From positions 29,328,001 to 29,392,000 of the forward strand of contig CM059432.1 in assembly GCA_030390025.1 (NCBI GenBank): 64,000 bases of DNA. The letters run 5' to 3'. The notes beneath the pieces are model-generated. The model worked only from the letters and a program-made list of their open reading frames with translations. It was not told the DNA's origin and made no database searches. Source of the DNA: Squalus acanthias. Lineage: Eukaryota. This document shows, piece after piece, positions 1-57,500 of the stretch. The position numbers and the translations under genes are program-made. Within the stretch, counting starts at the first letter, position 1, and every line of letters begins with the position of its first letter.

Positions 1-215
1 AATATCATCTCTCAATGTACAAAATATTATCACTCAATGTTCAAAATATCATCTTTAAATGGTCAAAATATCATCTCTTAATGTTCACAATATCATTTCT
101 AAATGTTGAAAATATCATCTCTCAATGTTAAAAATATCATCACTCAATATTCAAAACATCATCTCTCAAAGTTCACAACATCATCTCTCAATGTTCAAAA
201 TATCATCTCTCAATG

Positions 216-904
216 GGTATTGGTGAGACCGCACCTGGAGTACTGCATACAGTTTTGGTGTCCATACTTAAGAAAAGACATACTTGCTCTCGAGGCAGTA
301 CAAAGAAGGTTCACTCGGTTAATTCCGGGGATGAGGGAGTGGACATACGAGGAGAGATTGAGTAGATTGGGACTCTACTCATTGGAGTTCAGAAGAATGA
401 GAGGCGATCTTATTGAAACATATAAGATTGTGAAGGGGCTTGATCGGGTGGGCGTGGTGAGGATGTTCCCAATGATGGGTGAAACTAGAACTAGGGGACA
501 TAATCTTAGAATAAGGGGCTCCTCTTTCAAAACTGAGATGAGGAGAAACTTTTTCACTCAGAGGGTAGTGGGTCTGTGGAATTTGCTACCCCAGGAAGCT
601 GTGGAAGCTACTTCATTAAATAAATTTAAAACAGAAATAGACCGTTTCCTAGAAGTAAAGGGAATCAGGGGTTACGGGGAGCGGGCTGGAAATTGGACAT
701 GAGTTTGAGTTCGGATCGGTCAAGGCCCTGTGGGTGGTGGAGCGGGCCCAGGGACTGAGTGGCCTGGTCCTTCTCCTGCTTCTTGTGTTCTTTAGAGTTG
801 AGGTTGGACCAGATCAGCCATGATCTCATTGAATGGCGGAGCAGGCTCGAGGGGCCGATTGGTCTACTCCTGCTCCTATTTCTTATGTTCTTATGATCTT
901 ATGT
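216..904 (+). mobile_element. 5'-truncated CR1-clade LINE (ORF2 C-terminus, 3' UTR, TCTTATGT tail), copy 1
   Basis: Translation LVRPHLEYCIQFWCPYLRKDI...LERLGLYSLE-like (LSRLGLYSLEFRRMRGDLIETYK)...RTRGH...FFTQRVVGLWN is the typical CR1 ORF2 end; stop at 702. Octamer tail at 881-904. AATG on both sides (212-215, 905-908) is a candidate TSD. Confidence 0.93.
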
Positions 905-3900: not shown

Positions 3901-6900
3901 AAAATATCATCAATGTTCAAAATGCCATCTCGCAAGGTTCAAAATATCATCAATGTACAAAATATCATCTGTCAATGTTCAAAATATCATCAATGTTCAA
4001 AATATCATCATTGTTCAAAATATCATCACTCTGTTCAAAATATCATCTCTCAATGTCCAAAACATCATCTCTCAATGTTCAAAACATCATCTCTCAAAGT
4101 TCACAATATCATCTCTCAATGTTCAAAATGTGATCTCTCAATGTTCAAAATATCATCTCTCAATGTTCAAAATATCATATCTCAATGTTCACAATATCAT
4201 CACTCAATGTTCAAAATATCATCTCTCAATCTGTTAAAACTCTCATCTTTCAATCTGTTCAAAATCTCAGCACTCAATATTCAAAATAACATCACTCAAT
4301 GTTCAAAATATCATCTCTCAATGTTCAAAATATCATCAATGTGGAAAATATCATCAATATTCAAAATAACATCTCTCAATGTTCAAAATATCATCAACGT
4401 TCAAAATATCATCTCTCAATATTCAAAATATCATCTCTCAATGTTCAAAATATCCTCAATGATCAAAATATCATCGCTCAATGTTCACAATATCATCAAT
4501 GTTGAAAATATCATCTCTCAATGTTCAAAATATCATCAAAGTTCAAAATATCATCTCTCAATGTTCAAAATATCATCTCTCAATGTTCAAAATATCAACT
4601 CTCAATGTTCAAAATATCATTTCTCAATGTTCAAAATATCAACTCCTTAATGTTCACAATATCATTTCTCAATGTTGAAAATATCAACTCTCAATGTTCA
4701 AAATGTGATCTCTCAATTTTCAAAATACCATCTCTCAATGTTCAAAATATCAACTCCTTAATGTTCACAATATCATTTCTCAATGTTGAAAATATCAACT
4801 CTCAATGTTCAAAATATCATCTCTCAATGTTCAAAATATCATCTTTCTATGTTCAAAATATCACTCAATGTTCAAAATATCATCAATGTGGAAAATATCA
4901 TCAATGTTCAAAATATCATCTCTCAATGTTCAAAATATCATCAACGTTCAAAATATCATCTCTCAATGTTCAAAATGTTATCTCTCAATGTTCAAAATAT
5001 CCTCAATGATCAAAATATCATCTCTCAATGTTCACAATATAATCAATTTGCAAAATATCATCTCTCAATGTTCAAAATATCATCTCTCAAAGTTCACAAT
5101 ATCATCTCTCAATGTTCAAAATGTGATCTCTCAATGTTCAAAATATCATCTCTCAATGTTCAAAATATCATCTCTCAATGTTCAAAATATCATCTCTCAA
5201 TGTTCAAAATATCATCTCTCAATGTTCAAAATATCATCTCTCAATGTTCACAATATCATCACTCAATGTTCAAAATATCATCTCTCAATCTGTTAAAACG
5301 CTCATCTTTCAATCTGTTCAAAATCTCAGCACTCAATATTCAAAATAACATCACTCAATGTTCAAAATATCATCTCTCAATGTTCAAAATATCATCAATG
5401 TGGAAAATATCATCAATATTCAAAATATCATCTCTCAATGTTCAAAATATCATCAACGTTCAAAATATCATCTCTCAATGTTCAAAATGTTATCTCTCAA
5501 TGTTCAAAATATCCTCAATGATCAAAATATCATCTCTCAATGTTCACAATATAATCAATTTGCAAAATATCATCTCTCAATGTTCAAAATATCATCTCTC
5601 AAAGTTCACAATATCATCTCTCAATGTTCAAAATGTGATCTCTCAATGTTCAAAATATCATCTCTCAATGTTCAAAATATCATCTCTCAATGTTCAAAAT
5701 ATCATCTCTCAATGTTCAAAATATCATCTCTCAATGTTCAAAATATCATCTCTCAATGTTCACAATATCATCACTCAATGTTCAAAATATCATCTCTCAA
5801 TCTGTTAAAACGCTCATCTTTCAATCTGTTCAAAATCTCAGCACTCAATATTCAAAATAACATCACTCAATGTTCAAAATATCATCTCTCAATGTTCAAA
5901 ATATCATCAATGTGGAAAATATCATCAATATTCAAAATAACATCTCTCAATGTTCAAAATATCATCAACGTTCAAAATATCATCTCTCAATGTTCAAAAT
6001 GTCATCTCTCAATGTTCAAAATATCCTCAATGATCAAAATATCATCGCTCAATGTTCACAATATCATCAATTTTCCAAATATCATCTCTCAATGTTCAAA
6101 ATATCATCAAAGTTCAAAATATCATCTCTCAATGTTCAAAATATCATCTCTCAATGTTCACAAATCATCTCGCAATGTTTAAAATATCATCTCTCAATGT
6201 TCAAAATATCATCACTCAATGTTCACAATATCATCACTCAATGTTCAATATATCATCAATGTTCAAAATATCATCACTCAATTTTCTAAAATATAATCTT
6301 TCAATGTTCAAAATATCATCTCTCAATGTTCAAATTATCATCTCTTAATGTTCACATCATCTCTCAATGTTCAAAATATCAACTCTCAATGTTCAAAATG
6401 TCAACTCCTTAATGTTCACAATATCATTTCTCAATGTTGAAAATATCATCTCTCAACGTTCAAAATATCATCTCTCAATGTTCAAAATATCATCTTTCAA
6501 TGTTCAAAATATCACTCAATGTTCAAAATATCATCTCTCAATCTGTTAAAAATAACATTACTCAATGTGGAAAATATCATCAATGTGGAAAATATCATCA
6601 ATGTTCAAAATATCATCTCTCAATGTTCAAAATATCATCAACGTTCAAAATATCATCTCTCAATGTTCAAAATGTTATCTCTCAATGTTCAAAATATCCT
6701 CAATGATCAAAATATCATCTCTCAATGTTCACAATATCATCAATTTGCAAAATATCATCTCTCAATGTTCAAAATATCATCAAAGTTCAAAATATCATCT
6801 CTCAATGTTCAAAACATCATCTCTCAAAGTTCACAATATCATCTCTCAATGTTCAAAATGTGATCTCTCAATGTTCAAAATATCATCTCTCAATGTTCAA

Positions 6901-9900
6901 AATATCATCTCTCAATGTTCAAAATATCATCTCTCAATGTTCAAAATATCATCTCTCAATGTTCAAAATATCATCTCTCAATGTTCAAAATATCATCACT
7001 CAATGTTCAAAATATCATCTCTCAATCTGTTAAAACTCTCATCTCTCAATCTGTTCAATATCTCAGCACTCAATATTCAAAATAACATCACTCAATGTTC
7101 AAAATATCATCAATGTGGAAAATATCATCAATATTCAAAATAACATCTCTCCATGTTCAAAATATCATCAACGTTCAAAATATCGTCTCTCAATGTTCAA
7201 AATGTCATCTCTCAATGTTCAAAATATCCTCAATGATCAAAATATCATCGCTCAATGTTCACAATATCATCAATTTTCCAAATATCATCTCTCAATGTTC
7301 AAAATATCATCAAAGTTCAAAATATCATCTCTCAATGTTCAAAATATCAACTCCTTAATGTTCACAATATCATCTCTCAATGTTGAAAATATCATCTCTG
7401 AATGTTCAAAATATCATCTCTCAATGTTCAAAAAATCATCAATGTTCAAAATATCATCTCACAGTGTTCAAAATTTCATCTCTCAATGTACAAAATATTA
7501 TCACTCAATGTTCAAAATATCATCTTTAAATGGTGAAAATATCATCTCTTAATGTTCACTATCATTTCTCAATGTTGAAAATATCATCTCTCAATGTTCA
7601 AAATATCATCACTCAATGTTAAAAATATCATCTCTCAAAGTTCACAACATCATCTCTCAATGTTCAAAATATCATCTCTCAATGTTCAAAATGTGATCTC
7701 TCAATCTTCACAATATCATCTCTCAATGTTGAAAATATCATCTTTAAATGTTCAAAATGTCATCTCTTAATGTTCACAATATCATCTCTCAATGTTCCAA
7801 ATATCATATCTCAATGTTCACAATATCTTCTCTCAATGTTCAAAATATCATCAATGTTCAAAATATCATCTCTCAGTGTTCAAAATAGCATAAATGTTCA
7901 AAATAACATCAATGTTAAAAATATCATCTTTCAATGTTCACAATATCATCTCTCAATGTTCAAAATATCATCAATGTTCAAAATGCCATCTCGCAAGGTT
8001 CAAAATATCATCAATGTACAAAATATCATCTGTCAATGTTCAAAATATCATCAATGTTCAAAATATCATCATTGTTCAAAATATCATCACTCTGTTCAAA
8101 ATATCATCTCTCAATGTCCAAAACATCATCTCTCAATGTTCAAAACATCATCTCTCAAAGTTCACAATATCATCTCTCAATGTTCAAAATGTGATCTCTC
8201 AATGTTCAAAATATCATCTCTCAATGTTCAAAATATCATATCTCAATGTTCACAATATCATCACTCAATGTTCAAAATATCATCTCTCAATCTGTTAAAA
8301 CTCTCATCTTTCAATCTGTTCAAAATCTCAGCACTCAATATTCAAAATAACATCACTCAATGTTCAAAATATCATCTCTCAATGTTCAAAATATCATCAA
8401 TGTGGAAAATATCATCAATATTCAAAATAACATCTCTCAATGTTCAAAATATCATCAACGTTCAAAATATCATCTCTCAATATTCAAAATATCATCTCTC
8501 AATGTTCAAAATATCCTCAATGATCAAAATATCATCGCTCAATGTTCACAATATCATCAATGTTGAAAATATCATCTCTCAATGTTCAAAATATCATCAA
8601 AGTTCAAAATATCATCTCTCAATGTTCAAAATATCATCTCTCAATGTTCAAAATATCAACTCTCAATGTTCAAAATATCATTTCTCAATGTTCAAAATAT
8701 CAACTCCTTAATGTTCACAATATCATTTCTCAATGTTGAAAATATCAACTCTCAATGTTCAAAATGTGATCTCTCAATTTTCAAAATACCATCTCTCAAT
8801 GTTCAAAATATCAACTCCTTAATGTTCACAATATCATTTCTCAATGTTGAAAATATCAACTCTCAATGTTCAAAATATCATCTCTCAATGTTCAAAATAT
8901 CATCTTTCTATGTTCAAAATATCACTCAATGTTCAAAATATCATCAATGTGGAAAATATCATCAATGTTCAAAATATCATCTCTCAATGTTCAAAATATC
9001 ATCAACGTTCAAAATATCATCTCTCAATGTTCAAAATGTTATCTCTCAATGTTCAAAATATCCTCAATGATCAAAATATCATCTCTCAATGTTCACAATA
9101 TAATCAATTTGCAAAATATCATCTCTCAATGTTCAAAATATCATCTCTCAAAGTTCACAATATCATCTCTCAATGTTCAAAATGTGATCTCTCAATGTTC
9201 AAAATATCATCTCTCAATGTTCAAAATATCATCTCTCAATGTTCAAAATATCATCTCTCAATGTTCAAAATATCATCTCTCAATGTTCAAAATATCATCT
9301 CTCAATGTTCACAATATCATCACTCAATGTTCAAAATATCATCTCTCAATCTGTTAAAACGCTCATCTTTCAATCTGTTCAAAATCTCAGCACTCAATAT
9401 TCAAAATAACATCACTCAATGTTCAAAATATCATCTCTCAATGTTCAAAATATCATCAATGTGGAAAATATCATCAATATTCAAAATAACATCTCTCAAT
9501 GTTCAAAATATCATCAACGTTCAAAATATCATCTCTCAATGTTCAAAATGTCATCTCTCAATGTTCAAAATATCCTCAATGATCAAAATATCATCGCTCA
9601 ATGTTCACAATATCATCAATTTTCCAAATATCATCTCTCAATGTTCAAAATATCATCAAAGTTCAAAATATCATCTCTCAATGTTCAAAATATCATCTCT
9701 CAATGTTCACAAATCATCTCGCAATGTTTAAAATATCATCTCTCAATGTTCAAAATATCATCACTCAATGTTCACAATATCATCACTCAATGTTCAATAT
9801 ATCATCAATGTTCAAAATATCATCACTCAATTTTCTAAAATATAATCTTTCAATGTTCAAAATATCATCTCTCAATGTTCAAATTATCATCTCTTAATGT

Positions 9901-12900
9901 TCACATCATCTCTCAATGTTCAAAATATCAACTCTCAATGTTCAAAATGTGATCTCTCAATTTTCAAAATATCATCTCTCAATGTTCAAAATATCAACTC
10001 CTTAATGTTCACAATATCATTTCTCAATGTTGAAAATATCATCTCTCAACGTTCAAAATATCATCTCTCAATGTTCAAAATATCATCTTTCAATGTTCAA
10101 AATATCACTCAATGTTCAAAATATCATCTCTCAATCTGTTAAAAATAACATTACTCAATGTGGAAAATATCATCAATGTTCAAAATATCATCTCTCAATG
10201 TTCAAAATATCATCAACGTTCAAAATATCATCTCTCAATGTTCAAAATGTTATCTCTCAATGTTCAAAATATCCTCAATGATCAAAATATCATCTCTCAA
10301 TGTTCACAATATCATCAATTTGCAAAATATCATCTCTCAATGTTCAAAATATCATCAAAGTTCAAAATATCATCTGTCAATGTTCAAAACATCATCTCTC
10401 AAAGTTCACAATATCATCTCTCAATGTTCAAAATGTGATCTCTCAATGTTCAAAATATCATCTCTCAATGTTCAAAATATCATCTCTCAATGTTCAAAAT
10501 ATCATCTCTCAATGTTCAAAATATCATCTCTCAATGTTCAAAATATCATCTCTCAATGTTCAAAATATCATCACTCAATGTTCAAAATATCATCTCTCAA
10601 TCTGTTAAAACTCTCATCTCTCAATCTGTTCAATATTTCAGCACTCAATATTCAAAATAACATCACTCAATGTTCAAAATATCATCAATGTGGAAAATAT
10701 CATCAATATTCAAAATAACATCTCTCCATGTTCAAAATATCATCAACGTTCAAAATATCGTCTCTCAATGTTCAAAATGTCATCTCTCAATGTTCAAAAT
10801 ATCCTCAATGATCAAAATATCATCGCTCAATGTTCACAATATCATCAATTTTCCAAATATCATCTCTCAATGTTCAAAATATCATCAAAGTTCAAAATAT
10901 CATCTCTCAATGTTCAAAATATCAACTCTCAAGGTTCACAAATCATCTCGCAATGTTTAAAATATCATCTTTCAATGTTCAAAATATCATCACTCAATGT
11001 TCACAATATCATCACTCAATGTTCAATATATCATCAATGTTCAAAATATCATCACTCAATGTTCTAAAATATCATCTTTCAATGTTCAAAATATCATCTC
11101 TCAATGTTCAAATTATCATCTCTTAATGTTCACATCATCTCTCAATGTTCAAAATATCATCTCTCAATGTTCAAAATATCAACTCTCAATGTTCAAAATG
11201 TGATCTCTCAATTTTCAAAATATCATCTCTCAATGTTCAAAATATTAACTCCTTAATGTTCACAATATCATTTCTCAATGTTGAAAATATCATCTCTCAA
11301 CGTTCAAAATATCATCTCTCAATGTTCAAAATATCATCTTTCAATGTTCAAAATATCATCTCTCAATGTTCAAAATATCATCTCTCAATGTTCAAAATAT
11401 CAACTCTCAATGTTCAAAATGTGATCTCTCAATTTTCAAAATATCATCTCTCAATGTTCAAAATATCAACTCCTTAATGTTCACAATATCATTTCTCAAT
11501 GTTGAAAATATCATCTCTCAACGTTCAAAATATCATCTCTCAATGTTCAAAATATCATCTTTCAATGTTCAAAATATCACTCAATGTTCAAAATATCATC
11601 TCTCAATCTGTTAAAAATAACATTACTCAATGTTCAAAATATCATCAATGTGGAAAATATCATCAATGTTCAAAATATCATCTCTCAATGTTCAAAATAT
11701 CATCAACGTTCAAAATATCATCTCTCAATGTTCAAAATGTTATCTCTCAATGTTCAAAATATCCTCAATGATCAAAATATCATCTCTCAATGTTCACAAT
11801 ATCACTCAATTTGCAAAATATCATCTCTCAATGTTCAAAATATCATCTCTCAATGTTCAAAATATCATCTCTCAATGTTCAAAATATCATCAATTTGCAA
11901 AATATCATCTCTCAATGTTCAAAATATCATCAAAGTTCAAAATATCATCTCTCAATGTTCAAAATATCATCTCTCAATGTTCACAATATCATCAATGTTC
12001 AAAATATCGCTCAATGATCAAAATATCAGCTCTCAACGTTCAAAATATCATCAATGTTCAAAATATCATCTCTCAGTGTTCAAAATATCATCTCTCAATG
12101 TACAAAATATCATCTCTCAATGTTCACAATATCATCAATGTTCAAAATAACGCTCAATGATCAAAATATCAGCTCTCAATGTTCAAAATATCATCAATGT
12201 TCAAAATATCATCTCTCAGTGTTCAAAATATCATCTCTCAATCTGTTAAAAATAACATTACTCAATGTTCAAAATATCATCAATGTGGAAAATATCATCA
12301 ATGTTCAAAATATCATCTCTCAATGTTCAAAATATCATCAACGTTCAAAATATCATCTCTCAATGTTCAAAATGTTATCTCTCAATGTTCAAAATATCCT
12401 CAATGATCAAAATATCATCTCTCAATGTTCACAATATCATCAATTTGCAAAATATCATCTCTCAATGTTCAAAATATCATCTCTCAATGTTCAAAATATC
12501 ATCTCTCAATGTTCAAAATATCATCAATTTGCAAAATATCATCTCTCAATGTTCAAAATATCATCAAAGTTCAAAATATCATCTCTCAATGTTCAAAATA
12601 TCATCTCTTAATGTTCACAATATCATCAATGTTCAAAATATCGCTCAATGATCAAAATATCAGCTCTCAATGTTCAAAATATCATCAATGTTCAAAATAT
12701 CATCTCTCAGTGTTCAAAATATCATCTCTCAATGTACAAAATATTATCACTCAATGTTCAAAATATCATCTTTAAATGGTCAAAATATCATCTCTTAATG
12801 TTCACAATATCATTTCTAAATGTTGAAAATATCATCTCTCAATGTTAAAAATATCATCACTCAATATTCAAAACATCATCTCTCAAAGTTCACAACATCA

Positions 12901-12932
12901 TCTCTCAATGTTTAAAATATCATCTCTCAATG

Positions 12933-13621
12933 GGTATTGGTGAGACCGCACCTGGAGTACTGCATACAGTTTTGGTGTCCATACTTAAGAAAAGACATAC
13001 TTGCTCTCGAGGCAGTACAAAGAAGGTTCACTCGGTTAATTCCGGGGATGAGGGAGTGGACATACGAGGAGAGATTGAGTAGATTGGGACTCTACTCATT
13101 GGAGTTCAGAAGAATGAGAGGCGATCTTATTGAAACATATAAGATTGTGAAGGGGCTTGATCGGGTGGGCGTGGTGAGGATGTTCCCAATGATGGGTGAA
13201 ACTAGAACTAGGGGACATAATCTTAGAATAAGGGGCTCCTCTTTCAAAACTGAGATGAGGAGAAACTTTTTCACTCAGAGGGTAGTGGGTCTGTGGAATT
13301 TGCTACCCCAGGAAGCTGTGGAAGCTACTTCATTAAATAAATTTAAAACAGAAATAGACCGTTTCCTAGAAGTAAAGGGAATCAGGGGTTACGGGGAGCG
13401 GGCTGGAAATTGGACATGAGTTTGAGTTCGGATCGGTCAAGGCCCTGTGGGTGGTGGAGCGGGCCCAGGGACTGAGTGGCCTGGTCCTTCTCCTGCTTCT
13501 TGTGTTCTTTAGAGTTGAGGTTGGACCAGATCAGCCATGATCTCATTGAATGGCGGAGCTGGCTCGAGGGGCCGATTGGTCTACTCCTGCTCCTATTTCT
13601 TATGTTCTTATGATCTTATGT
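12933..13621 (+). mobile_element. CR1 LINE 3' fragment, copy 2
   Basis: Same 689 bp, truncation point and flanks as copy 1 (offset 12717). One visible substitution at 13560. Confidence 0.93.
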
Positions 13622-15452
13622 AATGTTCAAAATATGATCTCTCAATGTTCAAAATAACATCTCTCAATGTTGAAAATATCGACTTTAAATGGTCAAAATA
13701 TCAACCCTTAATGTTCACAATATCATCTCTCAATGTTGAAAATATCATCTCTCAATGTTCAAAATATCACATCTCAATGTTCACAATATCATCTCTCAAT
13801 GTTCAAAATATCATCTCTCAATTTTGAAAATATCATCTTTAAACGGTCAAAATATCATCTCTTAATGTTCACAATATCATCTCTCAATGTTGAAAATATC
13901 ATCTCTCAATGTTCAAAATATCATCTCTCAATGTTCAAAATATCATAAATGTTCAAAATATCATCAATGTTAAAAATATCATCTTTAAAATTTCACAATA
14001 TCATCTCTCAATGTTCAAAATATCATCAATCTTCAAAATGCCATCTCGCAAGGTTCAAAATATCATCAATGTACAAAATATCATCTGTCAATGTTCAAAA
14101 TATCATCAATGATCAAAATATCATCATTGTTCAAAATATCATCACTCTGTTCAAAATATCATCTCTCAATGTTCAAAACATCATCTCTCAAAGTTCACAA
14201 TATCATCTCTCAATGTTCAAAATGTGATCTCTCTGTTCAAAATGTCATCTCTCAATGTTCAAAATATCATCTCTCAATGTTCAAAATGTGATCTCTCAAT
14301 GTTCAAAATATCATATCTCAATGTTCACAATATCATCACTCAATGTTCAAAATATCATCACTCAATCTTCAAAATATCATCTCTCAATCTGTTAAAACTC
14401 TCATCTTTCAATCTGTTCAAAATCTCAGAACTCAATATTCAAAATAACATCACTCAATGTTCAAAATATCATCTCTCAATGTTCAAAATATCATCAATGA
14501 GGAAAATATCATCAATGTTCAAAATAACATCTCTCAATGTTCAAAATATCACCAATGTTCAAAATATCATCTATCAATGTTCAAAATGTCATCTCTCAAT
14601 GTTCAAAATATCCTCAATGAGCAAATTATCATCGCTCAATGTTCACAATATCATCAATTTTCCAAATATCATATCTCAATGTTCAAAATATCATCAAAGT
14701 TCAAAATATCATCTCTCCATGTTCAAAATATCATCACTCAATGTTCACAATATCATCTCTCAATGTTCAAAATATCATCTCTTAATGTTCACATCATCAC
14801 TCAATGTACAAAATATCATCTCTCAATGTTCAAAATATCATCTCTCAATGTTCAAAATATCAACTCTCAATGTTCAATATGTGATCTCTCAATTTTCAAA
14901 ATATCATCTCTCAATGTTCAAAATATCATCTGTCAATGTTCACAATATCATTTCTCAATGTTCAAAATATCATCAATGTTCAAAATATCATCACTCAATG
15001 TTCAAAATATCATTTCTCAATGTTCAAAATATCAGCAATGTTAAAAATATCATCACTCTGTTCAAAATATCATCTCTCAATGTTCAAAATATCATCTCTC
15101 AATGTTCAAAATATCATCTCTCAATGTTGAAAACATCATTTCTCAATGTTCAAAACATCATCTCTCAAAGTTCAAAATATCATCTCTCAATGTACAAAAT
15201 ATCATCTCTCAATGTTAAAAATATCATCAATGTTCCAAATATCATCTCTCAATGTACAAAATATTATCACTCAATGTTCAAAATATCATCTTTAAATGGT
15301 CAAAATATCATCTCTTAATGTTCACAATATCATTTCTAAATGTTGAAAATATCATCTCTCAATGTTAAAAATATCATCACTCAATATTCAAAACATCATC
15401 TCTCAAAGTTCACAACATCATCTCTCAATGTTCAAAATATCATCTCTCAATG

Positions 15453-16141
15453 GGTATTGGTGAGACCGCACCTGGAGTACTGCATACAGTTTTGGTGTCC
15501 ATACTTAAGAAAAGACATACTTGCTCTCGAGGCAGTACAAAGAAGGTTCACTCGGTTAATTCCGGGGATGAGGGAGTGGACATACGAGGAGAGATTGAGT
15601 AGATTGGGACTCTACTCATTGGAGTTCAGAAGAATGAGAGGCGATCTTATTGAAACATATAAGATTGTGAAGGGGCTTGATCGGGTGGGCGTGGTGAGGA
15701 TGTTCCCAATGATGGGTGAAACTAGAACTAGGGGACATAATCTTAGAATAAGGGGCTCCTCTTTCAAAACTGAGATGAGGAGAAACTTTTTCACTCAGAG
15801 GGTAGTGGGTCTGTGGAATTTGCTACCCCAGGAAGCTGTGGAAGCTACTTCATTAAATAAATTTAAAACAGAAATAGACCGTTTCCTAGAAGTAAAGGGA
15901 ATCAGGGGTTACGGGGAGCGGGCTGGAAATTGGACATGAGTTTGAGTTCGGATCGGTCAAGGCCCTGTGGGTGGTGGAGCGGGCCCAGGGACTGAGTGGC
16001 CTGGTCCTTCTCCTGCTTCTTGTGTTCTTTAGAGTTGAGGTTGGACCAGATCAGCCATGATCTCATTGAATGGCGGAGCAGGCTCGAGGGGCCGATTGGT
16101 CTACTCCTGCTCCTATTTCTTATGTTCTTATGATCTTATGT
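15453..16141 (+). mobile_element. CR1 LINE 3' fragment, copy 3
   Basis: Apparently identical to copy 1 at offset 15237, including the flanking satellite variants. Confidence 0.93.
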
Positions 16142-19100
16142 AATGTTCAAAATATGATCTCTCAATGTTCAAAATAACATCTCTCAATGTTCAAAATATT
16201 GACTTTAAATGGTCAAAATATCAACCCTTAATGTTCACAATATCATCTCTCAATGTTGAAAATATCATCTCTCAATGTTCAAAATATCACATCTCAATGT
16301 TCACAATATCATCTCTCAATGTTCAAAATATCATCTCTCAATTTTGAAAATATCATCTTTAAACGGTCAAAATATCATCTCTTAATGTTCACAATATCAT
16401 CTCTCAATGTTGAAAATATCATCTCTCAATGTTCAAAATATAATCTCTCAATGTTCAAAATATCATAAATGTTCAAAATATCATCAATGTTAAAAATATC
16501 ATCTTTAAAATTTCACAATATCATCTCTCAATGTTCAAAATATCATCAATCTTCAAAATGCCATCTCGCAAGGTTCAAAATATCATCAATGTACAAAATA
16601 TCATCTGTCAATGTTCAAAATATCATCAATGATCAAAATATCATCATTGTTCAAAATATCATCACTCTGTTCAAAATATCATCTCTCAATGTTCAAAACA
16701 TCATCTCTCAAAGTTCACAATATCATCTCTCAATGTTCAAAATGTGATCTCTCTGTTCAAAATGTCATCTCTCAATGTTCAAAATATCATCTCTCAATGT
16801 TCAAAATATCATCACTCAATCTTCAAAATATCATCTCTCAATCTGTTAAAACTCTCATCTTTCAATCTGTTCAAAATCTCAGAACTCAATATTCAAAATA
16901 ACATCACTCAATGTTCAAAATATCATCTCTCAATGTTCAAAATATCATCAATGAGGAAAATATCATCAATGTTCAAAATAACATCTCTCAATGTTCAAAA
17001 TATCACCAATGTTCAAAATATCATCTATCAATGTTCAAAATGTCATCTCTCAATGTTCAAAATATCCTCAATGAGCAAATTATCATCGCTCAATGTTCAC
17101 AATATCATCAATTTTCCAAATATCATATCTCAATGTTCAAAATATCATCAAAGTTCAAAATATCATCTCTCCATGTTCAAAATATCATCACTCAATGTTC
17201 ACAATATCATCTCTCAATGTTCAAAATATCATCTCTTAATGTTCACATCATCACTCAATGTACAAAATATCATCTCTCAATGTTCAAAATATCATCTCTC
17301 AATGTTCAAAATATCAACTCTCAATGTTCAATATGTGATCTCTCAATTTTCAAAATATCATCTCTCAATGTTCAAAATATCATCTGTCAATGTTCACAAT
17401 ATCATTTCTCAATGTTCAAAATATCATCAATGTTCAAAATATCATCACTCAATGTTCAAAATATCATTTCTCAATGTTCAAAATATCAGCAATGTTAAAA
17501 ATATCATCACTCTGTTCAAAATATCATCTCTCAATGTTCAAAATATCATCTCTCAATGTTCAAAATATCATCTCTCAATGTTGAAAACATCATCTCTCAA
17601 TGTTCAAAACATCATCTCTCAAAGTTCAAAATATCATCTCTCAATGTACAAAATATCATCTCTCAATGTTAAAAATATCATCAATGTTCCAAATATCATC
17701 TCTCAATGTTCAAAATATCATCTCTTAATGTTCACAATATAACTTCACAATATTGATAATATCATCTCTCAATGTTCAAAGTATCATCTCTCAATGTTCA
17801 AAATATCATCTCTCAATGTTCAAAATATCATCAATGTTCTAAATATCATCTCGCAATGTTCAAAATATCATCCATGTTCAAAATATCATCTCGCAATGTT
17901 TGAAATATCATATCTCAATGTTCACAATATCTTCTCTCAATGTTCAAAATATCATCAAAGTTCAAAATGCCATCTCCCAATGTTGAAAATATCAATGTTC
18001 AAAATGCCATCTTGCAATGTTCCAAATATCATCAATGTTCAAAATATTATCTCTCAATGTTCAAAATATCATCAATGTTCAAAATATCATATCTCAATGT
18101 TCAAAATATCAGCAATGTTCAAAATATCATCTCTCAATGTTCAAAATGTGATCTCTCAATTTTCAAAATATCATCACTCAATGTTCAAAATATCATCTCT
18201 CAATTTTCAAAATATCATCTCTCAATGTTCAAAATATTATCACTCAATGTTCAAAATATCATCTTTAAATGGTCAAAATATCATCTCTTAATGTACACAA
18301 CATCATTTCTCAATGTTGAAAATATCATCTCTCAATGTTCAAAATATTATCTCTCCATGTTCAAAATATCTTCTCTCAATGTTCACAACATCATCTCTCA
18401 ATGTTCAAAATGTGAGCTCGCAATTTTCAAAATATCATCTCTCAATGTTGAAAATATCATCTCTCAATGTTCAAAATGCCATCTCGCAATGTTGAAAATA
18501 TCAATGTTCAAAATGCCATCTCGCAATGTTCAAAATATCATCAATGTTCAAAATATCATCTCTCAATGTTCAAAATATCACCTCTCATCGTTCAAAATAT
18601 CCTCAATGTTGTAAATATCATCAATGTTCAAAATATCCTCAAAGTTCAAAATATCATCTCTCAATGTTCAAAATATTATCACTCAAGGTTCAAAATATCA
18701 TCTCTCAATGTTCACAGTATCATCTCTCAATGTTCAAAATATCATCTGTAGAATTCGCAAAATTATCGCGATTTTATAAAAATAAGAAGGAGACATAAAG
18801 TTTCGTATAAACAGCTTTATTTCAGCAGAATGCTGTCAGTTTTCAAAACGGACACAAACAGCCTGTAAAATGTCCGCCACGCCTCGTGGCAGAAAGTTCT
18901 AGACTTTCAGTAGGCAGACAAGATGGCGTTTCAATAAACATTTCAGCAAGATCGGACAGGACTCAGCACATTTGAGATAATGACAAGACATGATGGGTTT
19001 GCATTTTAAACATAAATACTGGAATCGGTCTTCCAGGTGCAAACAAGGGCTATTGTACTGAGCGATCAAGGACCCATCCAAAGACATTAATATGCAAAAT

Positions 19101-19319
19101 CCCCACGGCTCTACGATGAGAGAGCCGTTCGCGGGTACTCACAGCAAGCATTTGGAAGCTCCAAAACCCCTCCAGGGAGACTACTAGCCGGTTCCACAAT
19201 GGGAGAAATATTAACGGGTACTCAGACAGTTACAAGTGTCACCGAAACCCATTAAAGACTGAGATCACCCCATACAAGAAGTTTTGAGCGCCAAAACCTG
19301 ACAAAAGATAGACATTAAG

Positions 19320-19390
19320 ATTGGGCGGGAAAATAGAAATTACAGCACTATAACTGTAAAGTACAACCGTCCATCTCTCTCTTGCTACTC
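19320..19390 (+). promoter_or_regulatory. Candidate LTR core promoter
   Basis: Inverted CCAAT (ATTGG 19320-19324), GC box (GGGCGG 19323-19328), TATA-like TATAAC at 19349 and a CT-rich tract ~25 bp later. A second TATAA lies at ~19661, so the assignment is ambiguous. Confidence 0.3.
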
Positions 19391-19570
19391 TGACTCGCAG
19401 GAAGGCTGCTGAACTCTTATTCTTTTGCCTGACGACTCTGGACTCTGATCCGCTAGGATCAACCTCGTGGCTTGCCGTGAAGATCTGTGGAGAACTGGGC
19501 TGTGAGGCCTGGAGGCAGGCGCACCATCCCGAGGAGTCGGTAAATGGTGTTGGAACCGAAGGCCCGAGAG

Positions 19571-19605
19571 GAGATGAGATGAGATGAAATGAGATGAGAT
19601 GAGAT
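19571..19605. repeat. (GAGAT)n microsatellite inside the LTR
   Basis: Seven units (one GAAAT) in the 5' LTR versus five in the 3' LTR at ~27218-27242. Confidence 0.9.
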
Positions 19606-20392
19606 GAGAAGAAGACTACACATGTCGCCGCGGTTAGTAAGCCCCGACCGCGCCTAAAAATATAAGGACAATTTTCGAATTCTATCGGCTACTCCACAAC
19701 TGGCCCGAGAAGACTATTCTTCGAGTTCTACCGACAACTGGTGTAGGACACAGGAAGACTCTTTTTTTTGAGTAGTATCAGAACTCCGAGGGCAACACAG
19801 ATCTTCATGACAGCAGACGGTCCAGCCTGCTAGCCGGAGCAGAAGTGAGTAAACAAGTGGGGTACAGAGACCCCTGATCAACACGTGGATAGTCAGGTGC
19901 TGCGGTAAAAACATCCGAGCAGAGTTTCGGAATTCTCCGAGTTATCACGAGTGGTGAGCATGAGTCTCGATCCTACAAATCTAGATTAGGACAGGTATTG
20001 ATAGGGGAGGGTTTTATGTTTTAAGGATAATTATAATGTGTGTCCCCTTTTACGATGTGTCGTGCGCTCCTCGTTTCCCTAAACCTAGTTGCATAAATGT
20101 ATGTAAGTTTGTACTGTCATTAATCTGTGCTTATGACATGTATTTCGTAATCTTGAATAATATGCAATAAAGATTTTCCATTTCGCACTATTCAACCGGG
20201 TCTATCTGAGTTTTCTCTGCATTATTGCTCTCGCACCTAAGTCCAGTGTCAGAACCGTAAGGGCGAGTGGGTCGAACCACTCACAGGTGTCTAGTGTTAC
20301 CAGGCTGGCTGGAGACCAGAACAGGCAACAAGGCCTAACCCCGCACTAACACTCAGGCTAAGCACAGAGCCACACGTCACCCCTTACAGATA

Positions 20393-22218
20393 ATGGCGAC
20401 CACAAAGGGACACTGGCAGCGAGAAAATAATGTGTTAGACCCTGGTATGAATGGGCGAAATGTTATGGAAGAGAGAATAGCCGATTATGTTTTTGGAAAA
20501 GTGAATTTGACTAAGAGATGGATAAGTGACCTGCTGGTGGATAAGCGTCCACTAGAGGCAGCCGTGAGGTGGACAGGCAGCAAGGAACATAAAAAAACTG
20601 TAGAGAAAGCGGTCTGGCTGATGTGCTATAAAAGACAAGTCCAGCTTTCGGACCAGGTCATTACAGCGCAGGCAGCTCAGATCAAGGGTTTAGAGGTGGA
20701 AATGGACGAGAAGGTCGCAGGGGGGGCAGCAGCTCATCGCGTCTTTAAATGCGTTGCATCAAGAATGCCAGTTAGTGCCCAACCACTATGAGGCGAAAAT
20801 AGATTACCTCGAGTGCCAGGTCACTGAGGCAAAGTTAAATGAGGGCAGAATAAGGGAACGATGTGCCCGCCTAGCTGCTCAAATAAAAGCCCAGGAAGAG
20901 AGCTTAACGGGGGTTAGGGCGGCATATAAGATGGCCCTCGAGGATAAACATGAGGGGGCCGATCACAGCGTCTGCCAAAGAGAGATAGGGAACCTTAAAG
21001 AGGCCCTGAATAAAGCGCACGGCATGGTGTGCCTTATCAGCCCGTCAGCACACCAGCCGCCGGTGGGTGGGGAATTTCAAAAATCCCTACCGAACAAAGC
21101 AGAGGAGGTATTTGCCACTGTGCCCTCCGCGCCACCCAGCTATTCGGCAACCTGGATAAGGGAGGAAGTGGTAGAAGTAGAGGAAGAGGTCCCCGAGGTA
21201 GTACAGCCCCCTGAAGTAGTAGCGAAGCCGGGACCGTTGTGTCCGGTCACGGGTATCAAAAGGGGCCCGGCCGGAGAAAATGGGGAAGCGGGGAATCTCC
21301 TCAACCAACTTGTGTTGCCTCACAGCTCACACCAGCTGAGGGCTATGATCAGTCACGTACGGAAGCTGGTCCGAGTCAGACGACCCTTCCGTACATTTCA
21401 GGGAGGTAGAGCAGACCGCAGCCATTAACGGCTGCGACGATGGGGAAAAGGCTAGAATGCTGCTGTTCTCCTTAGACAGCTCGATCCTCCAGTGTCTCTC
21501 AGACGCGAGTAAAAGGGGTGATAAGACCTATGAGGAGTTAAGAGATGAGGTCCTAGAAGTGTTGGGGGCGGACGACGAAGGTCCGTTTGTGAGATTGGGA
21601 CAGACTATGCAGATGGAGGGAGAACCCCCGAAGGTTTTCGCCGACAGGCTGTGGCCTGTCTATCAGCGTAGCTGCCCAGGTGCGCCAGCGCGCGACGATC
21701 TGGACGGTGTCGGTTTAGCTCATTGGCTCAGATGTATAGTAGCCAACAGCTTGCCAGCCGTGAGGGAGCAGGCCAAAGCGTGGTTTGATCCCACTAACCC
21801 CGCCAAAACAGAGGAGTCGGTCCTAAATCGACTCACGGTCGGGTACCGTAATACCAGGAGTACGGGAGCACGTCCCCTTAAGGGAAAGGTGCATGAGGCG
21901 CGGCCCACAGCCCCGGCTCAAAAGGAGTGGCATCAGGAGGGAAATCGCGTCCCACAGGCCAGTAATGCTTGTTTCGGATGCGGAAAGACAGGGCACTGGC
22001 GCAAGAACTGCAGGAATCCTTGGAAGGAGTCCAGGGATAAAAATCCCGCAGTCCAAGCCCAGGCGCCTGTCTCTGATAGGGGAGCTGGTGTGCCTATCCA
22101 TCCCGATGCGATCGAATCAATGTTGGGAGCCATGCGCACCCTCATGATTTCGCAAGGAAGGGTGGCAGTCGCTACCGGCCCCGCAGATGCCGCAGCCCCG
22201 TCCAACAGTACCCAATGA
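20393..22218 (+). pseudogene. gag: Gag-like polyprotein (~580-607 aa), broken by two single-base insertions
   Basis: ORFs 20393-20791, 20754-21428 and 21457-22218 join if one G is removed in the G7 run (20720-20726) and one at ~21369. Features: N-terminal coiled coil, PSAPPSY (21123-21143), capsid-like DPSVHFREVE...EKARMLL and MHR-like QMEGEPPKVFADRL, and CFGCGKTGHWRKNC (21970-22011). The true start may be ATG 20447 or 20465 because 20393 overlaps the PBS. Confidence 0.88.
20394..20411 (+). promoter_or_regulatory. Primer-binding site, tRNA-Arg type
   Basis: TGGCGACCACAAAGGGAC lies 5 nt after the LTR. It matches the complement of the vertebrate tRNA-Arg(TCG) 3' end (TGGCGACCACGAAGGGAC, recalled from memory) at 17/18 positions. 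Confidence 0.8.
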
Positions 22219-22222
22219 CTAG
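22213..22222 (+). promoter_or_regulatory. Putative stop-codon readthrough signal CAA-TGA-CTAG
   Basis: The Gag stop TGA (22216-22218) is followed by CTAG, an established leaky-stop context, and by 231 in-frame sense codons. Confidence 0.75.
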
Positions 22223-23297
22223 AGCCCGCGCAGCCTGCCTACCTGTGTCCCTTTAAAAGACATGCACAGGAGGGGGTCTCCTGTAAGGAGGCCAGGTTAA
22301 AAGAGCAGGCCTTACGGGAGGAGAACGCCCGCTTAATGGGGAAAATAGATGGGCTAGAAGCGCAGCTTAGAGACATAAAAGCAGCCTACAGGGTAGCCAG
22401 GAGCAGGGAGTATGAGGATTTAAAACAGAATAGAAATCTGCAGCCTCCAGCAGGTGAGATTTCACAGAATGCACAAGCAGGGGCGGTGGCCTGTGTTAGG
22501 GGAGGGGCCAAACCTGCGAGTGGGGACTCGCAGCCCCGGGTAGGCCCACAGGGCACACAGGCAGGCAAAGCAGCTTGCATCAGGGGAGAGGACATCCTAG
22601 CAAAATGTAGGATCCTTTATTTGGGTTGGGAGTCAGATGAGGAAGAGTTCGAGGAGCTCGACCAAGATAGTGACACAAGCGAAGAGGAGCTGGAATCGGA
22701 GGACGAAAGGGTCGCCCCCGATTCAGGTAAAGGGGAGACAGGGGCTGCAGATAGAGATCCACACAGGGTGGAAGCCGAAGCTGCAGGTCCCGAACGCAGG
22801 GGGGCGGAGCTAGGCGAGGCGGAGCCAGCCGCTGTGGTGGGACCACAGGGCGTGGCGATGGAAGCCTCAGAGCCCGAGCCGCCCGCCTTGAACGTCTTGC
22901 CTCGAATGAGGTAGGGACTGCAAGTGAAGGGCCGCCTACTGGGCCAAGTAGGGCGGTGCCACAAGCTGCAGATCCCGAGTTCAGGGAGGCGGAGTCAGGG
23001 GAGGCGGAGCCAGCGACTGTGGTGGGACCACAGGTCGCCACGGTGGAAGTCTCGGAACCCGGTCCGTCAGTCCTGGAGTTCCTGCCCCCGGTAGTTCCCC
23101 GTAGGTCAAGTCGGAAACCCCAGCCCAGAAAGATGTGGGTAAGTCCCCCGTATGTCCCTAGGCATAGGTCCAGGGCTAAGGCAGCCCAGGGAGAGCCCAG
23201 TCACAGCGCAGCAGCAACAGGCTGCGGCAGACCAAAGGGAGGGGTCAATGCCCTCCCACCATTGGGAGAAGCCTGCGGCAGCAACCGCAGAATTTGA
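22219..23297 (+). CDS. Gag-frame extension in the pol position (coiled coil, acidic/Pro-rich repeats, basic tail); one frameshift at ~22900
   Basis: Open in the gag frame from 22219 to 22914. A -1 shift near 22900 continues into the frame of ORF 22956-23297, which carries the second copy of the same peptide repeat. No protease, RT, RNase H or integrase motif seen. Confidence 0.6.
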
Positions 23298-23587
23298 GTA
23301 GGCCGCCCTGGGAACGGGCGGCACTGTACAGTTATAAGATAAGTGATAAGTTTATAAGTTTATAAGTTCAAGTTTATAGTTTTAAATCAGGTTAAGTTTG
23401 TAGTTTAATTTTAACAGAAAATGGTAAAATGATGGGAGTTTTAGAGATAGGAATAGTTAAAGTCTATCCAGCGCACATGTCTTCTTACGTGAGGCGAGGT
23501 CAGGGGACCCGCTCACCCTTCACAAAAGCCAGAGACTCTTGGGAGGCTGGCTACCTCATTCTATCTGATCACAGGAACCAAGGAAGG

Positions 23588-25939
23588 ATGGAACGGATTC
23601 TGGTAGTGCTCGCGGCAATCGGATGTGGACTGGCCTATCGAGGCCGCACCAAGGATGTCGTGGTGTTTGGATGCTCCGGGGACACGGCCCCCATCACGGT
23701 GGATGGGACCGGAAGGCGAGAGGCTGAGGAGACCGCCACCTACTTCCACAAGGGAAGGTGGCCAGGATGGCTGGGAACGAATTCAACTGAATATTCCAGT
23801 ACATCGGGATTTGCCTATAAAGAGACTTCTTTAATGTGCCCCAAAGTGAGGATCATCGCACCCAGAGTCAGCGTCACCGTCGGCAAATGGATTTGTTTGA
23901 CTTGTAATGGGAATGTCCCATTGAGCCGATGGTGGTGGCTACGAAAGCTGAGCAAAAACATGAGGAACTCTTCGGTCGAGTGGGAGCGACTGGGTAATAA
24001 TACCCATCGGACAATTACGGGGACTTACGGACAATTGAGAGTCTGTTGGGACAAATGGTGGGAACCGGATGAGGGAATTTATGTATGTATGTGGGGGTCA
24101 AAGCACGTTTGCCCCAAAGGCATCTCCATATTTTTCATCAATCAGTGGCAGGATAATGGGAAAGGGATGAGGTGGGATGCAAGCACCAGGGGGTGCGGGG
24201 CTCCATACTCTCTGATCCCGGTAAATGCCACTGAACTCATTACGCGCCCACGCAAGGCCCCACCCACAATTCCGGTGGTTCTAGCTAAGGAAGAAGGGTG
24301 CCCAAAAAGCAGTAAGGGACCCGGGAATGGTTTGGTACTGGTCCCTACAGACCAGCTATTATTTCAGGGGGTACATTATGCGGTGGCCTCAGTGATTTTA
24401 AACCTCACCGAGGTGCGGTTGCCGGAGTGGTGCCCCAAAGAGACGGAACGGTTATATCAGGTCCTGTTGACCAAGATGTTTAGGCAATTTTATGAGTTCG
24501 ATTTCGCGGAAATTGATAAAACAAGTTTGTACACCGCACCACATGAAGTTTTGGGTCAGGTGGGGAGACAAAGAAGGGGTGTTGTGAACGACATGTTCAC
24601 TGCTTTCAATACAGGTACATCTGTGGTCAACGCTCTAGACAGCGTGGAGCTGCAGACCCAGATTAATGGTTTGAAAACTTAATTAAAGGATATTCTTACA
24701 GACGAAAATAAGGTGGTTGGGTCTGGGTTACATGAGGACCAGGCCATGACTCTCCATTTAAAAGAAATCATAGCTGAACTAGAGAAACATGCGCGTACGG
24801 TAAATGCCCTGATCAGGGAAGATCGGAATGCGTCCGATCAGGCTGTGCAGAATGAGGTGTGCGTGCTTTATGGGGCGTGGTTACTGGGCGAGGGCCGCAG
24901 TAATTTGGAGGATTTAAAACAAGGTTTGGTCCCGTCCTGGATAAGTAACAAACACCTGCAGGCGCTCCACCCTTTTCAGAACGCATTAAGTCCGTGCCAG
25001 CTCAGGCTAGCTTCAGAAGCATACCCAGTCCCCGTGGACTGCGGACGATCAAACCACACCATTATGGGTGTAGTTTTACGTATGCCGGTTTTGGGCGACA
25101 CAGCAAAGCCCGCCCCGGTATATCGGGTAGAGAACATTGGTGTCATTCAGGGGGGAGCCCACATTCGCTATGCAGCGGTTCCACCTTACGTCATCCGCTG
25201 GGAGCAAACGATGACAGGTACAGATCTCTCTGGTTGTCGTAGCTGGGGAGCACACATAATCCTGTGTCCCCAGCACTTGAATGCCTTTTTAACACCACAG
25301 TGCGGGTTCAGAACGGCTGGCGCCAAGCCCATGAATTGCACCATGGAGGCAATGGCACAAGATCATGTGCCTCTGCAGGTAGCATACATCGGGGGTGGAA
25401 CATATTGTGTTACCACTGCAGCGCAACACTACCAGCATGGAAACCGGAGCCGGTGTCCGGTGAGTGACAGCAGTTTTTGTTTTAAACCCAGGGCTGAAGT
25501 TCAAGTGGCACAGCAGCGAATTGTCCCGATCCCTGAACCATCCACTGTTCATCTTACAGTAAAAGAGAACTTCACCGACTTGCAGCGATTCGTCGCGCAT
25601 TTCGGATACCTCATTCCCCCTCTCCCTGAACACCTCACCAAGCTTTTGAAAGCCGTCGCGGTATCGCAAAAACATTTTTACACCCTAGAACAAAAGACTG
25701 TCGAGATAGGGACAGAAATTCTAGACATAGTAATTCCACCGTGGTGGGATCTGTTCACCAACATTGAAGTGCCTTCCTGGATTAGAATAGCCTCCCACAT
25801 TTTAGTTGTATGCCAAGTGTTTATTGTGATATACTTATTGGTCGTGCATTGTAAGAGAGGCAAACGCCTCACCAAGAACGAAAACACGGGAGAGTGGCGA
25901 GAGCGTTACGTGCGCGTGCACGAAGAAAGCACCGCGTAA
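23588..25939 (+). pseudogene. env: Env-like class I fusion glycoprotein (783 codons) with one in-frame stop (TAA 24680-24682)
   Basis: ATG in AGGATGG context 14 nt after an acceptor-like pyrimidine tract/CAG (23574). Signal peptide MERILVVLAAIGCGLA, furin site RQRR (24566-24577), fusion-peptide-like GVVNDMFTAFNTG, heptad region, Cys-rich core, about ten N-glycosylation sequons, Trp-rich membrane-proximal region, TM helix (~25787-25851) and a YVRV tail. ORFs 23429-24682 and 24713-25939 share a frame. Confidence 0.88.
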
Positions 25940-26381
25940 ACAGACAAAATGGCGTCACTCCAGTTTTTTCCACGTGCGCCTCGGAATTGTTGTAATCGAT
26001 CGTGATTTTTTTCTCAGAAACTGTAATTAAGTTTGGAACTCTACATGTTTAAGAGTTGGTTTTGATTATTTTGGTTTGGTGTTGTTGAATATGGTTGTTT
26101 GGTTGTATTTTTTTGGTTTTCTTTTTCCTTGAATAAAAAAAATATGCATATGCAGGTGGTGCGAGAGGCATCGGCCTGGTTACACCTGGAAGGAAATACA
26201 CGCGGTGTAAGTTGAAGGCAAATGCTGCCTACGGTGTTATAAGGATGTCATTTTCCTGGGAAATAAGGACGACACGGAGACCCTAGATAGTTTTAAGTTA
26301 TGGGAATTTTTGGATATAGAGAATCGAGATAATATTGCTCACCACAATGTTTCTGATACGATAAGCGGAGTTATTCGCATC

Positions 26382-26393
26382 AACAGGAGGGAC
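26382..26393 (+). promoter_or_regulatory. Polypurine tract
   Basis: AACAGGAGGGAC immediately before the TG of the 3' LTR. Confidence 0.75.
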
Positions 26394-28024
26394 TGTAGAA
26401 TTCGCAAAATTATCGCGATTTTATAAAAATAAGAAGGAGACATAAAGTTTCGTATAAACAGCTTTATTTCAGCAGAATGCTGTCAGGTTTCAAAACGGAC
26501 ACAAACAGCCTGTAAAATGGCCGCCACGCCTCGTGGCAGAAAGTTCTAGACTTTCAGTAGGCAGACAAGATGGCGTTTCAATAAACATTTCAGCAAGATC
26601 GGACAGGACTCAGCACATTTGAGATAATGACAAGACATGATGGGTTTGCATTTTAAACATAAATACTGGAATCGGCCTTCCAGGTGCAAACAAGGGCTAT
26701 TGTACTGAGCGATCAAGGACCCATCCAAAGACATTAATATGCAAAATCCCCACGGCTCTACGATGAGAGAGCCATTCGCAGGTACTCACAGCAAGCATTT
26801 GGAAGCTCCAAAACCCCTCCAGGGAGACTACTAGCCGGTTCCACAATGGGAGAAATATTAACGGGTACTCAGACAGTTACAAGTGTCACCGAAACCCATT
26901 AAAGACTGAGATCACCCCATACAAGAAGTTTTGAGCGCCAAAACCTGACAAAAGATAGACATTAAGATTGGGCGGGAAAATAGGAATTACAGCACTATAA
27001 CTGTAAAGTACAACCGTCCATCTCTCTCTTGCTGGTCTGACTTGCTGGAAGGCTGCTGAACTCTTATTCTTTTGCCTGACGACTCTGGACTCTGATCCGC
27101 TAGGATCAACCTCGTGGCTTGCCGCGAAGATCTGTGGAGAACTGGGCTGTGAGGCCTGGAGGCGGGCGCACCATCCCGAGGAGTCGGTAAACGGTGTTGG
27201 AACCGAAGGCCCGAGAGGAGATGAGATGAGATGAGATGAGATGAGAAGAAGACTACACGTGTCGCCGCAGTTAGTAAGCCCCGACCGCGCCTAAAAATAT
27301 AAGGACCATTTTCGAATTCTATCGGCTACTCCACAACTGGCCCGAGAAGACTATTCTTCGAGTTCTACCGACAACTGGTGTAGGACACAGGAAGACTCTT
27401 TTTTTGAGTAGTATCAGAACTCCGAGGGCAACACAGATCTTCATGACAGCAGACGGTCCAGCCTGCTAGCCGGAGCAGAAGCGAGTAAACAAGTGGGGTA
27501 CAGAGACCCCTGATCAACACGTGGATAGTCAGGTGCTGCGGTAAAAACATCCGAGCAGAGTTTCGGAATTCTCCGAGTTATCACGAGTGGTGAGCATGAG
27601 TCTCGATCCTACAAATCTAGATTAGGACAGGTATTGATAGGGGAGGGTTTTATGTTTTAAGGATAATTATAATGTGTGCCCCCTTTTACGATGTGTCGTG
27701 CGCTCCTCGTTTCCCTAAACCTAGTTGCATAAATGTATGTAAGTTTGTACTGTCATTAATCTGTGCTTATGACATGTATTTCGTAATCTTGAATAATATG
27801 CAATAAAGATTTTCCATTTCGCACTATTCAACTGGGTCTATCTGAGTTTTCTCTGCATTATTGCTCTCGCACCTAAGTCCAGTGTCAGAACCGTAAGGGC
27901 GAGTGGGTCGAACCACTCACAGGTGTCTAGTGTTACCAGGCTGGCTGGAGACCAGAACAGGCAACAAGGCCTAACCCCGCACTAACACTCAGGCTAAGCA
28001 CAGAGCCACACGTCACCCCTTACA
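26394..28024 (+). repeat. 3' LTR (1631 bp)
   Basis: Differs from the 5' LTR by roughly 20 substitutions (counted by eye), two fewer GAGAT units and one fewer T. AATAAA at 27802-27807. Confidence 0.96.
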
Positions 28025-54923: not shown

Positions 54924-54989
54924 CTGTTTCTCTCTCCACAGATGCTGCCTGACCTGCTGAGTATTTCCAGCATTTTCTGTTTTTATTTC

Positions 54990-57456: not shown

Positions 57457-57500
57457 GTAGAGGGGATTTCAACTCCTGGACGATTGGCCAGCAGAACTCT

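Follow-up and report, generated by a model that had tools for sequence, protein, structure and literature searches.

The window analysed here, a 64,000-nucleotide stretch of the Squalus acanthias genome, contains a 9.3 kb LTR element (18747-28024) inserted within a 22-bp satellite (table 1). From 5' to 3' the element consists of an LTR, a PBS-like site, gag, a TGA-CTAG stop context, an in-frame open reading frame termed ORF X, env and a second LTR. The two LTRs align with 1,612 matches, 19 mismatches (14 of them transitions) and 11 gap columns, a divergence of 19 in 1,631 aligned bases (1.2%), which indicates a young insertion. A (GAGAT)n microsatellite lies within the LTR at 19570-19610 and in the matching stretch of the 3' LTR, and its length differs between the two. 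The flanks of the element read as a 3-bp ATC duplication; this is unusual for an LTR element, and within repeat DNA the reading is ambiguous. We take the PBS-like 18-mer to match the 3' end of tRNA-Arg. The first gag ATG overlaps this site (20393-20411), and the skate Gags P0001, P0003 and P0005 begin with the same residues. No protease, reverse transcriptase (RT) or integrase was found in the element, either in the list of open reading frames or by Pfam search: the gag stop and env lie 1.4 kb apart, and the interval holds no PR, RT, tether, RH or IN domain. An Rfam search across the element gave no match. Paired LTRs, a PBS and no pol characterize non-autonomous LTR elements, and the element is a pol-less variant of a non-autonomous retrovirus-like element, real and unusual. 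This copy carries two frame breaks in gag, one in the tail of X and one in env.

Table 1. Features of the LTR element, in coordinates of the window.
Feature	Position	Strand	Remarks
5' LTR	18747..20388	+	TGTA...TACA; aligned to 3' LTR
gag	20393..22218	+	helical/coiled-coil N-terminal domain, spacer, capsid, one CCHC, TGA stop
PBS-like 18-mer	20394..20411	+	5 nt past 5' LTR; overlaps gag ATG at 20393
Coil copy 1	20826..20936	+	end of Gag's long N-terminal helix; then H-x2-C and further helix
CCHC knuckle of gag (one)	21967-22014	+	
gag stop	22216..22222	+	TGA-CTAG context
ORF X	22219..22914	+	231 codons, no in-frame stop; in frame with gag
Stub, 23 codons	22219..22287	+	in frame with gag, start of ORF X
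Coil copy 2	22288..22398	+	within ORF X; predicted single helix, X residues 22-72
G-x-(V/A)-x-C short repeats in X (two)	22474, 22558	+	
Acidic tract of X	22630-22689	+	
Long repeat 1 of X	22765-22901	+	
X tail, probable	22950..23297	+	other frame; frame break lies between the two long repeats
Long repeat 2	22950-23086	+	in probable X tail
Basic motif PRRSSRKP	23097	+	in probable X tail
env, F-type	23588..25939	+	signal peptide, heptad region, TM; one stop interrupts this copy
RQRR furin-type site of env	24566-24577	+	
3' LTR	26394..28024	+	aligned to 5' LTR

The gag gene of this copy is split over three frames (20339-20791, 20694-21428 and 21349-22218). Uninterrupted relatives of 588 aa are present in the skate Rhinoraja longicauda (P0001/P0005), and P0001 is 66% identical to the capsid ORF. 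The relatives recovered include P0001 and P0003-5 from this skate, P0007 from Scyliorhinus torazame and P0009 from Rhincodon typus; compared as proteins, the Gags of these three species belong to the same family as that of the element. A structure model of the skate Gag predicts long N-terminal helices at residues 64-125 and 133-182, with pLDDT blocks of 63-89. Foldseek with this model returned the MLV capsids 6hwx/6hww at the top (E 0.02-0.06), followed by the HTLV-1 and HIV capsids, all weak matches (E 0.02 or worse) from a model with a pLDDT of 51. The H-x2-C motif that follows the Gag coil is invariant in 8 of 8 and 10 of 10 aligned Gag rows and absent from X. A match to Rab11-FIP3 (E 0.09) and matches to Smc proteins were set aside as generic coil likeness, and a 33-residue match in a Planctomycete MAG was judged to be chance. 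Neither a genomic context for the relatives nor an autonomous relative was found in viral contigs or metagenomes.

Downstream, env gave no match in Pfam or PDB sequence searches. Its nearest Atlas clusters were Baculo_F (0.96) and Fusion_gly (0.90), with all 10 best family matches in agreement and a weak recognition value of 1642. Its layout of signal peptide, furin site, fusion peptide, heptad region and TM fits the paramyxo/pneumovirus-F-like env of lokiretroviruses, a layout that does not separate these from errantivirus-type F env. In run X2 summed contig depth rises at about 23210 and stays above the level of gag and X to the end of env; the other runs show the same less evenly. This excess might reflect further subfamilies that share env and differ upstream, contig depth being unreliable as a measure of copy number.

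ORF X runs for its full 231 codons with no stop, as against 13 stops in each of the other two plus frames, and its codon GC pattern resembles that of gag. Set by eye beside the Pol starts of lokiretroviruses, the 23-codon stub at its beginning is probably the start of a lost pol. The comparison takes in a protease-site pattern, C|P; in a competing, loose alignment part of the stub pairs with the Gag sequence that precedes the coil. A structure model of the coil that follows predicts a helix at residues 22-72, with core pLDDT above 90. We read 22950..23297 as the probable tail of X, since no other pair of frames lets the two long repeats encode homologous protein. Over this tail, on the opposite strand, lies an open frame of 206 codons (22580-23200, minus strand) with no Pfam match, which is probably a shadow of GC-rich coding DNA. 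Searches for homologues of X of near length found none among 1,728 candidates, X residues 1-135 matched none of 573 candidate proteins of 406-2,000 aa in a weak search, and every match in an Atlas search with X scored under 0.9.

The initial annotation had seen in ORF X a second, diverged copy of Gag's own coiled coil. The two translations are indeed as quoted there and align without gaps at 16 identities in 37 residues, with an ungapped BLOSUM62 score of 73. The underlying DNA is identical at 60 of 111 positions, or 23, 22 and 15 of 37 at the three codon positions, the third being the least alike. The copies match at zero offset only, the score of 73 falling to 5 at an offset of +7 and to -2 at -7. 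This argues against generic heptad likeness, which would score at other offsets. Of 5,000 whole shuffles of X, 2 attained the local score between the two ORFs (77); four local-window shuffles, 5,000 rounds each, gave no such case. The coil-to-coil score of 73 was attained by none of 20,000 shuffles that kept heptad positions, in each of two designs. The similarity, for which shuffled controls had been proposed as a check, is significant against all of these. The strongest test used a profile of eight Gag relatives, built without any sequence of the window and hence independent of copy 1: X matched it at 25.6 bits, whereas none of 6,000 shuffles exceeded 10.4. The X coil scores on the Gag family profile with the A-A-Y-(K/R) motif aligned in register, and hhalign joined X residues 17-71 to Gag at P=1.7e-6. 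Compared with natural coils, copy 2 scored 17.7 bits on copy 1, the two highest-scoring natural proteins in PDB reaching 13.0 and 11.4. A designed repeat protein in PDB scored 21 bits with copy 2 as the sum of eight stretches, none worth more than 4 bits, and a PDB search with copy 1 gave no match at E<=10.

We conclude that copy 2 is almost certainly derived from gag. Chance or coiled-coil convergence could be entertained for a segment as short as 37-55 residues with a single-sequence E of 0.04-0.05 at PDB size, but the single register, the heptad shuffles, the natural-coil control and the independent profile all speak against it, the profile largely refuting it, and we regard it as extremely improbable. 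Two further resemblances, a QPP motif and an acidic tract said to follow both coils, fared less well. Both QPPs exist but sit 45 and 20 residues past the shared AAY and are not homologous, nor is QPP conserved among the related Gags. The acidic tracts (8 of 20 against 13 of 20 residues D or E) are not homologous either. Alignment of the regions downstream of the coils scores 26, compared with a shuffle mean of 32, and 1,885 of 2,000 shuffles reach 26. Of the long helical stretch in Gag, copy 2 represents the final third alone, and it lacks the invariant H-x2-C.

As to its origin, the suggestion had been a duplication of old date or recombination with a gag paralogue, and both the tree and the profiles agree with this, leaning towards another gag lineage or a duplication that predates the split from the skate Gags. 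In a coil tree of 11 rows and 43 columns, from which P0012 (no coil) and P0003 and P0005 (near-duplicates of P0001/P0004) were left out, copy 1 joined the skate-like Gags P0001/P0004/P0006 at 96/96, and copy 2 fell outside this group beside P0007/P0008/P0011 with weak support (73/79). AU tests rejected neither sisterhood of the two copies (p=0.07) nor a grouping of copy 2 and the skate-like Gags (p=0.31). X scored 22.6 bits on a shark-like and 7.9 bits on a skate-like profile, a comparison that somewhat favours the more diverse shark-like set; the copy 1 frame ranks the profiles the other way (77 and 212). Of 37 residues, copy 2 shares 16 with copy 1, 13-16 with shark Gags and 12-13 with skate-like Gags. 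Synonymous sites between the two copies are saturated (pS 0.77 versus pN 0.37). From these sequence comparisons we favour, with moderate confidence, a coil that was captured from a different gag lineage or duplicated very long ago over one from a recent self-duplication, and copy 2 is probably not a recent self-copy. A fairly recent tandem duplication of the element's own gag coil, followed by fast change, could draw on the higher identity of copy 2 to copy 1 than to skate-like Gags, on the AU value of 0.07 and on the fact that local coil duplications do occur (an 18-aa insert in P0002; a 69-nt joint in a contig of run X8). The saturated silent sites, the position of copy 2 in the best tree and on the profiles, and its C-terminal DI.AAY(R/K)VA, which is the shark-type version, make such an event very unlikely.

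All 30 bins, X included, were covered in 4 of 4 runs used, out of 20 listed (organisms A, B and D), with many variants in X and gag; X DNA is present in other individuals and species. Both indels within X among the rows listed (12 of 126) are of 3 nt, and in one contig of run X8 a 69-nt piece of the coil, 23 codons long, is duplicated in frame. Of 817 loose ends 24 are listed, and no listed piece spans both the gag stop and the beginning of the coil with 31 letters on each side. The expectation that the segment be kept in frame in other copies is borne out in part, by coverage and by the listed indels within X and not by a bridging piece at the gag-X junction; X looks to be kept in frame across copies. 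Differences in the short internal repeat of X, which like the coil pair was chosen by protein likeness, are mostly silent (p=0.007). No significant constraint is apparent in the long repeat, for which DNA similarity was the basis of choice (pS 0.33, pN 0.22, p=0.14). Between the coils a low pN/pS is expected regardless if the piece diverged while still part of a gag elsewhere. That X is kept by selection on the protein is about an even call.

The sequence behind the gag stop, UGA-CUAG, corresponds to a leaky stop context described in the accessible part of bioRxiv 2021.04.18.440353. Folding of the RNA after the stop revealed no significant hairpin (z -1.4; 18 of 200 shuffles). Judged from the stop context and the shared frame, X is likely to be made by readthrough as Gag-X. 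The best overall explanation, which we hold tentatively and at a little under even probability, is a lokiretrovirus-like pol-less element with a captured or anciently duplicated coil, whose Gag-X would pair with Gag coils. Pol would have been lost from a lokiretrovirus-like LTR element of cartilaginous fish, and its position behind the leaky UGA-CUAG would have been taken by X, made up of a short pol stub, a piece of Gag coil and a low-complexity tail. The coil piece may have come from another gag lineage, through a template switch among RNAs packaged together, or from a duplication predating the split from the skate Gags. Readthrough would yield a minority of Gag-X in place of Gag-Pol, the Gag part could carry Gag-X into particles, and the added helix might pair there with Gag coils, the element's own or a helper's, and act as a tether. 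Alternatively, a helper protease might cut the coil out and so create a competitor. Short of such a cut the readthrough product would leave the coil on the C-terminus of Gag, and to call it free, as had been done, would not hold for the product as made. That X acts by pairing with Gag coils is possible but doubtful. Complex prediction for the Gag coil region (107 aa) and the X coil (53 aa), run with no controls and no alignment, gave 0.17 twice with a mark of 0.34 and speaks neither for nor against pairing. More specifically, Gag-X might be the adaptor of a parasite, a pol-less, env-keeping, high-copy family of a loki-like retrovirus that has turned the readthrough signal of Gag-Pol to the making of Gag-X, and whose captured coil pairs with the Gag/Gag-Pol of the donor lineage and either draws in helper enzymes or damps the helper; this we consider unlikely.

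Two other accounts accept the gag origin of the coil. The same capture may have left X as a passenger with no protein function, its coding signature a relic of its gag past and its spread that of a young family. The small distance between the LTRs (1.2%) would fit this, as would the long repeat with no significant constraint, the fragmentary copy 2 without H-x2-C, the lack of any X-like protein in protein searches and the fact that X is broken in this copy, as are gag and env. Against it count the 231 open codons across several differently derived pieces, the listed X indels in multiples of three, including the 69-nt repeat, and the silent-site excess in the short internal repeat, and we place this account on the unlikely side. 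Alternatively, X could be an old accessory gene: autonomous members would have carried it between integrase and env, as a gag-derived ORF of ancient date or as the tail of Pol, and deletion of pol would have moved it up to the gag stop. Copy 2 is about equidistant from all Gags (12-16 of 37), and the basic PRRSSRKP tail resembles what we take to be Gypsy-type Pol ends, both of which would suit such a gene. So would the whale shark gene model P0009, where an env-like N-terminus follows closely on a coil of Gag type: its alignment to X spans some 115 residues and scores 78, compared with 66 when the coil is taken by itself. P0009 could be an X-like frame ahead of env, or else a gene model in which a normal gag exon was spliced. 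The weak search with X residues 1-135 among 573 candidates of 406-2,000 aa, which gave no match, counts against an old accessory gene, as do Loki Pol ends, which stop soon after the integrase C-terminal motif in the part of PMC7947760 available. Its probability is small.

The closest overall likeness of the element is to lokiretroviruses, as far as these are described in the accessible portion of PMC7947760. Common to both are the LTR-gag-(pol)-env order, an N-terminal coiled coil (in some lokiretroviruses, as 'smc-gag-pol' in their data; on Gag here) and an F-like env with a furin site. The loki capsid is nearest to MLV 6HWW in their result, and MLV capsids head the weak fold matches here. 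The 5-nt spacer before TGG is found in Loki-Sri as well (PMC7947760). Lokiretroviruses differ in having pol (PR, RT, tether, RH and IN), whereas the element has ORF X instead, and the CCHC knuckle present here was not seen in the Loki Gag ends of Bsp, Ofa and Sau; no second coil is described for them in that portion of the text (PMC7947760). By its sequence the element resembles lokiretroviruses in build, but we do not file it as one because RT, the gene that defines them and is placed there as sister to sampled retroviruses (PMC7947760), is absent, and because the zinc knuckle is unseen in the three published Loki Gag ends. A missing pol bars full membership, though it is what would be expected of a non-autonomous derivative. 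Since Smc matches to the coil are generic here, our data suggest that the loki 'smc gene', the 5' part of one smc-gag-pol frame (PMC7947760), may be Gag's N-terminal coil and not a captured SMC.

Nearest in kind are BHIKHARI Bik-1 and Bik-2 of zebrafish, non-autonomous loki-type elements with a coiled-coil and capsid Gag, no pol and young copies, in the accessible text of PMC12067270. They keep gag only (Bik-2 without pol and env), whereas the element here keeps env and has X; in Bik-1 the Gag coil is required for membrane association (PMC12067270). Ty1 copy-number control by p22/p18 offers a precedent for interference, an element-encoded Gag fragment acting on Gag, in the accessible parts of PMC4599808 and PMC8458377. 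However, p22 is made from a subgenomic RNA and represents the C-terminal half of the element's own gag (PMC4599808, PMC8458377), and here a separate diverged coil stands at the pol position. In the open-access literature, as distinct from Repbase/Dfam, we found no report of pol replaced by a copy of the Gag coil, and the accessible parts of PMC13524379, PMC12440569 and bioRxiv 2021.11.23.469661 describe no such element. The arrangement bears on the question of how non-autonomous retroelements that keep gag and env obtain RT and integrase from a distant helper, to which an in-frame helper-type coil in place of pol would, if true, be a concrete and testable answer. Should X prove functionless, the element would still be a pointer to loki-like retroviruses among skates and sharks; the survey in the accessible portion of PMC7947760 had found 0 of 6 cartilaginous fish genomes positive.

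The 22-bp satellite array, with higher-order units, extends on both sides of the element, over 1-18746 and 28025-51497 of the window. Three copies of a LINE 3' fragment (284-1183, 13001-13900 and 15521-16420), presumably CR1, are 99.7% alike including their satellite flank, indicating recent block duplications of the array. Further fragments of LINE-like elements, which we assume to be of CR1 type, lie at 54961-58845 and 62703-63548, with an RVT_1 match (E 3.5e-33) at 57439-58272. This RT at 57.4 kb was considered as the missing pol and rejected, as it belongs to a separate LINE-like element. A DDE_Tnp_4 transposase fragment, presumably Harbinger-like, occupies 60167-61009 on the minus strand (E 6e-16).
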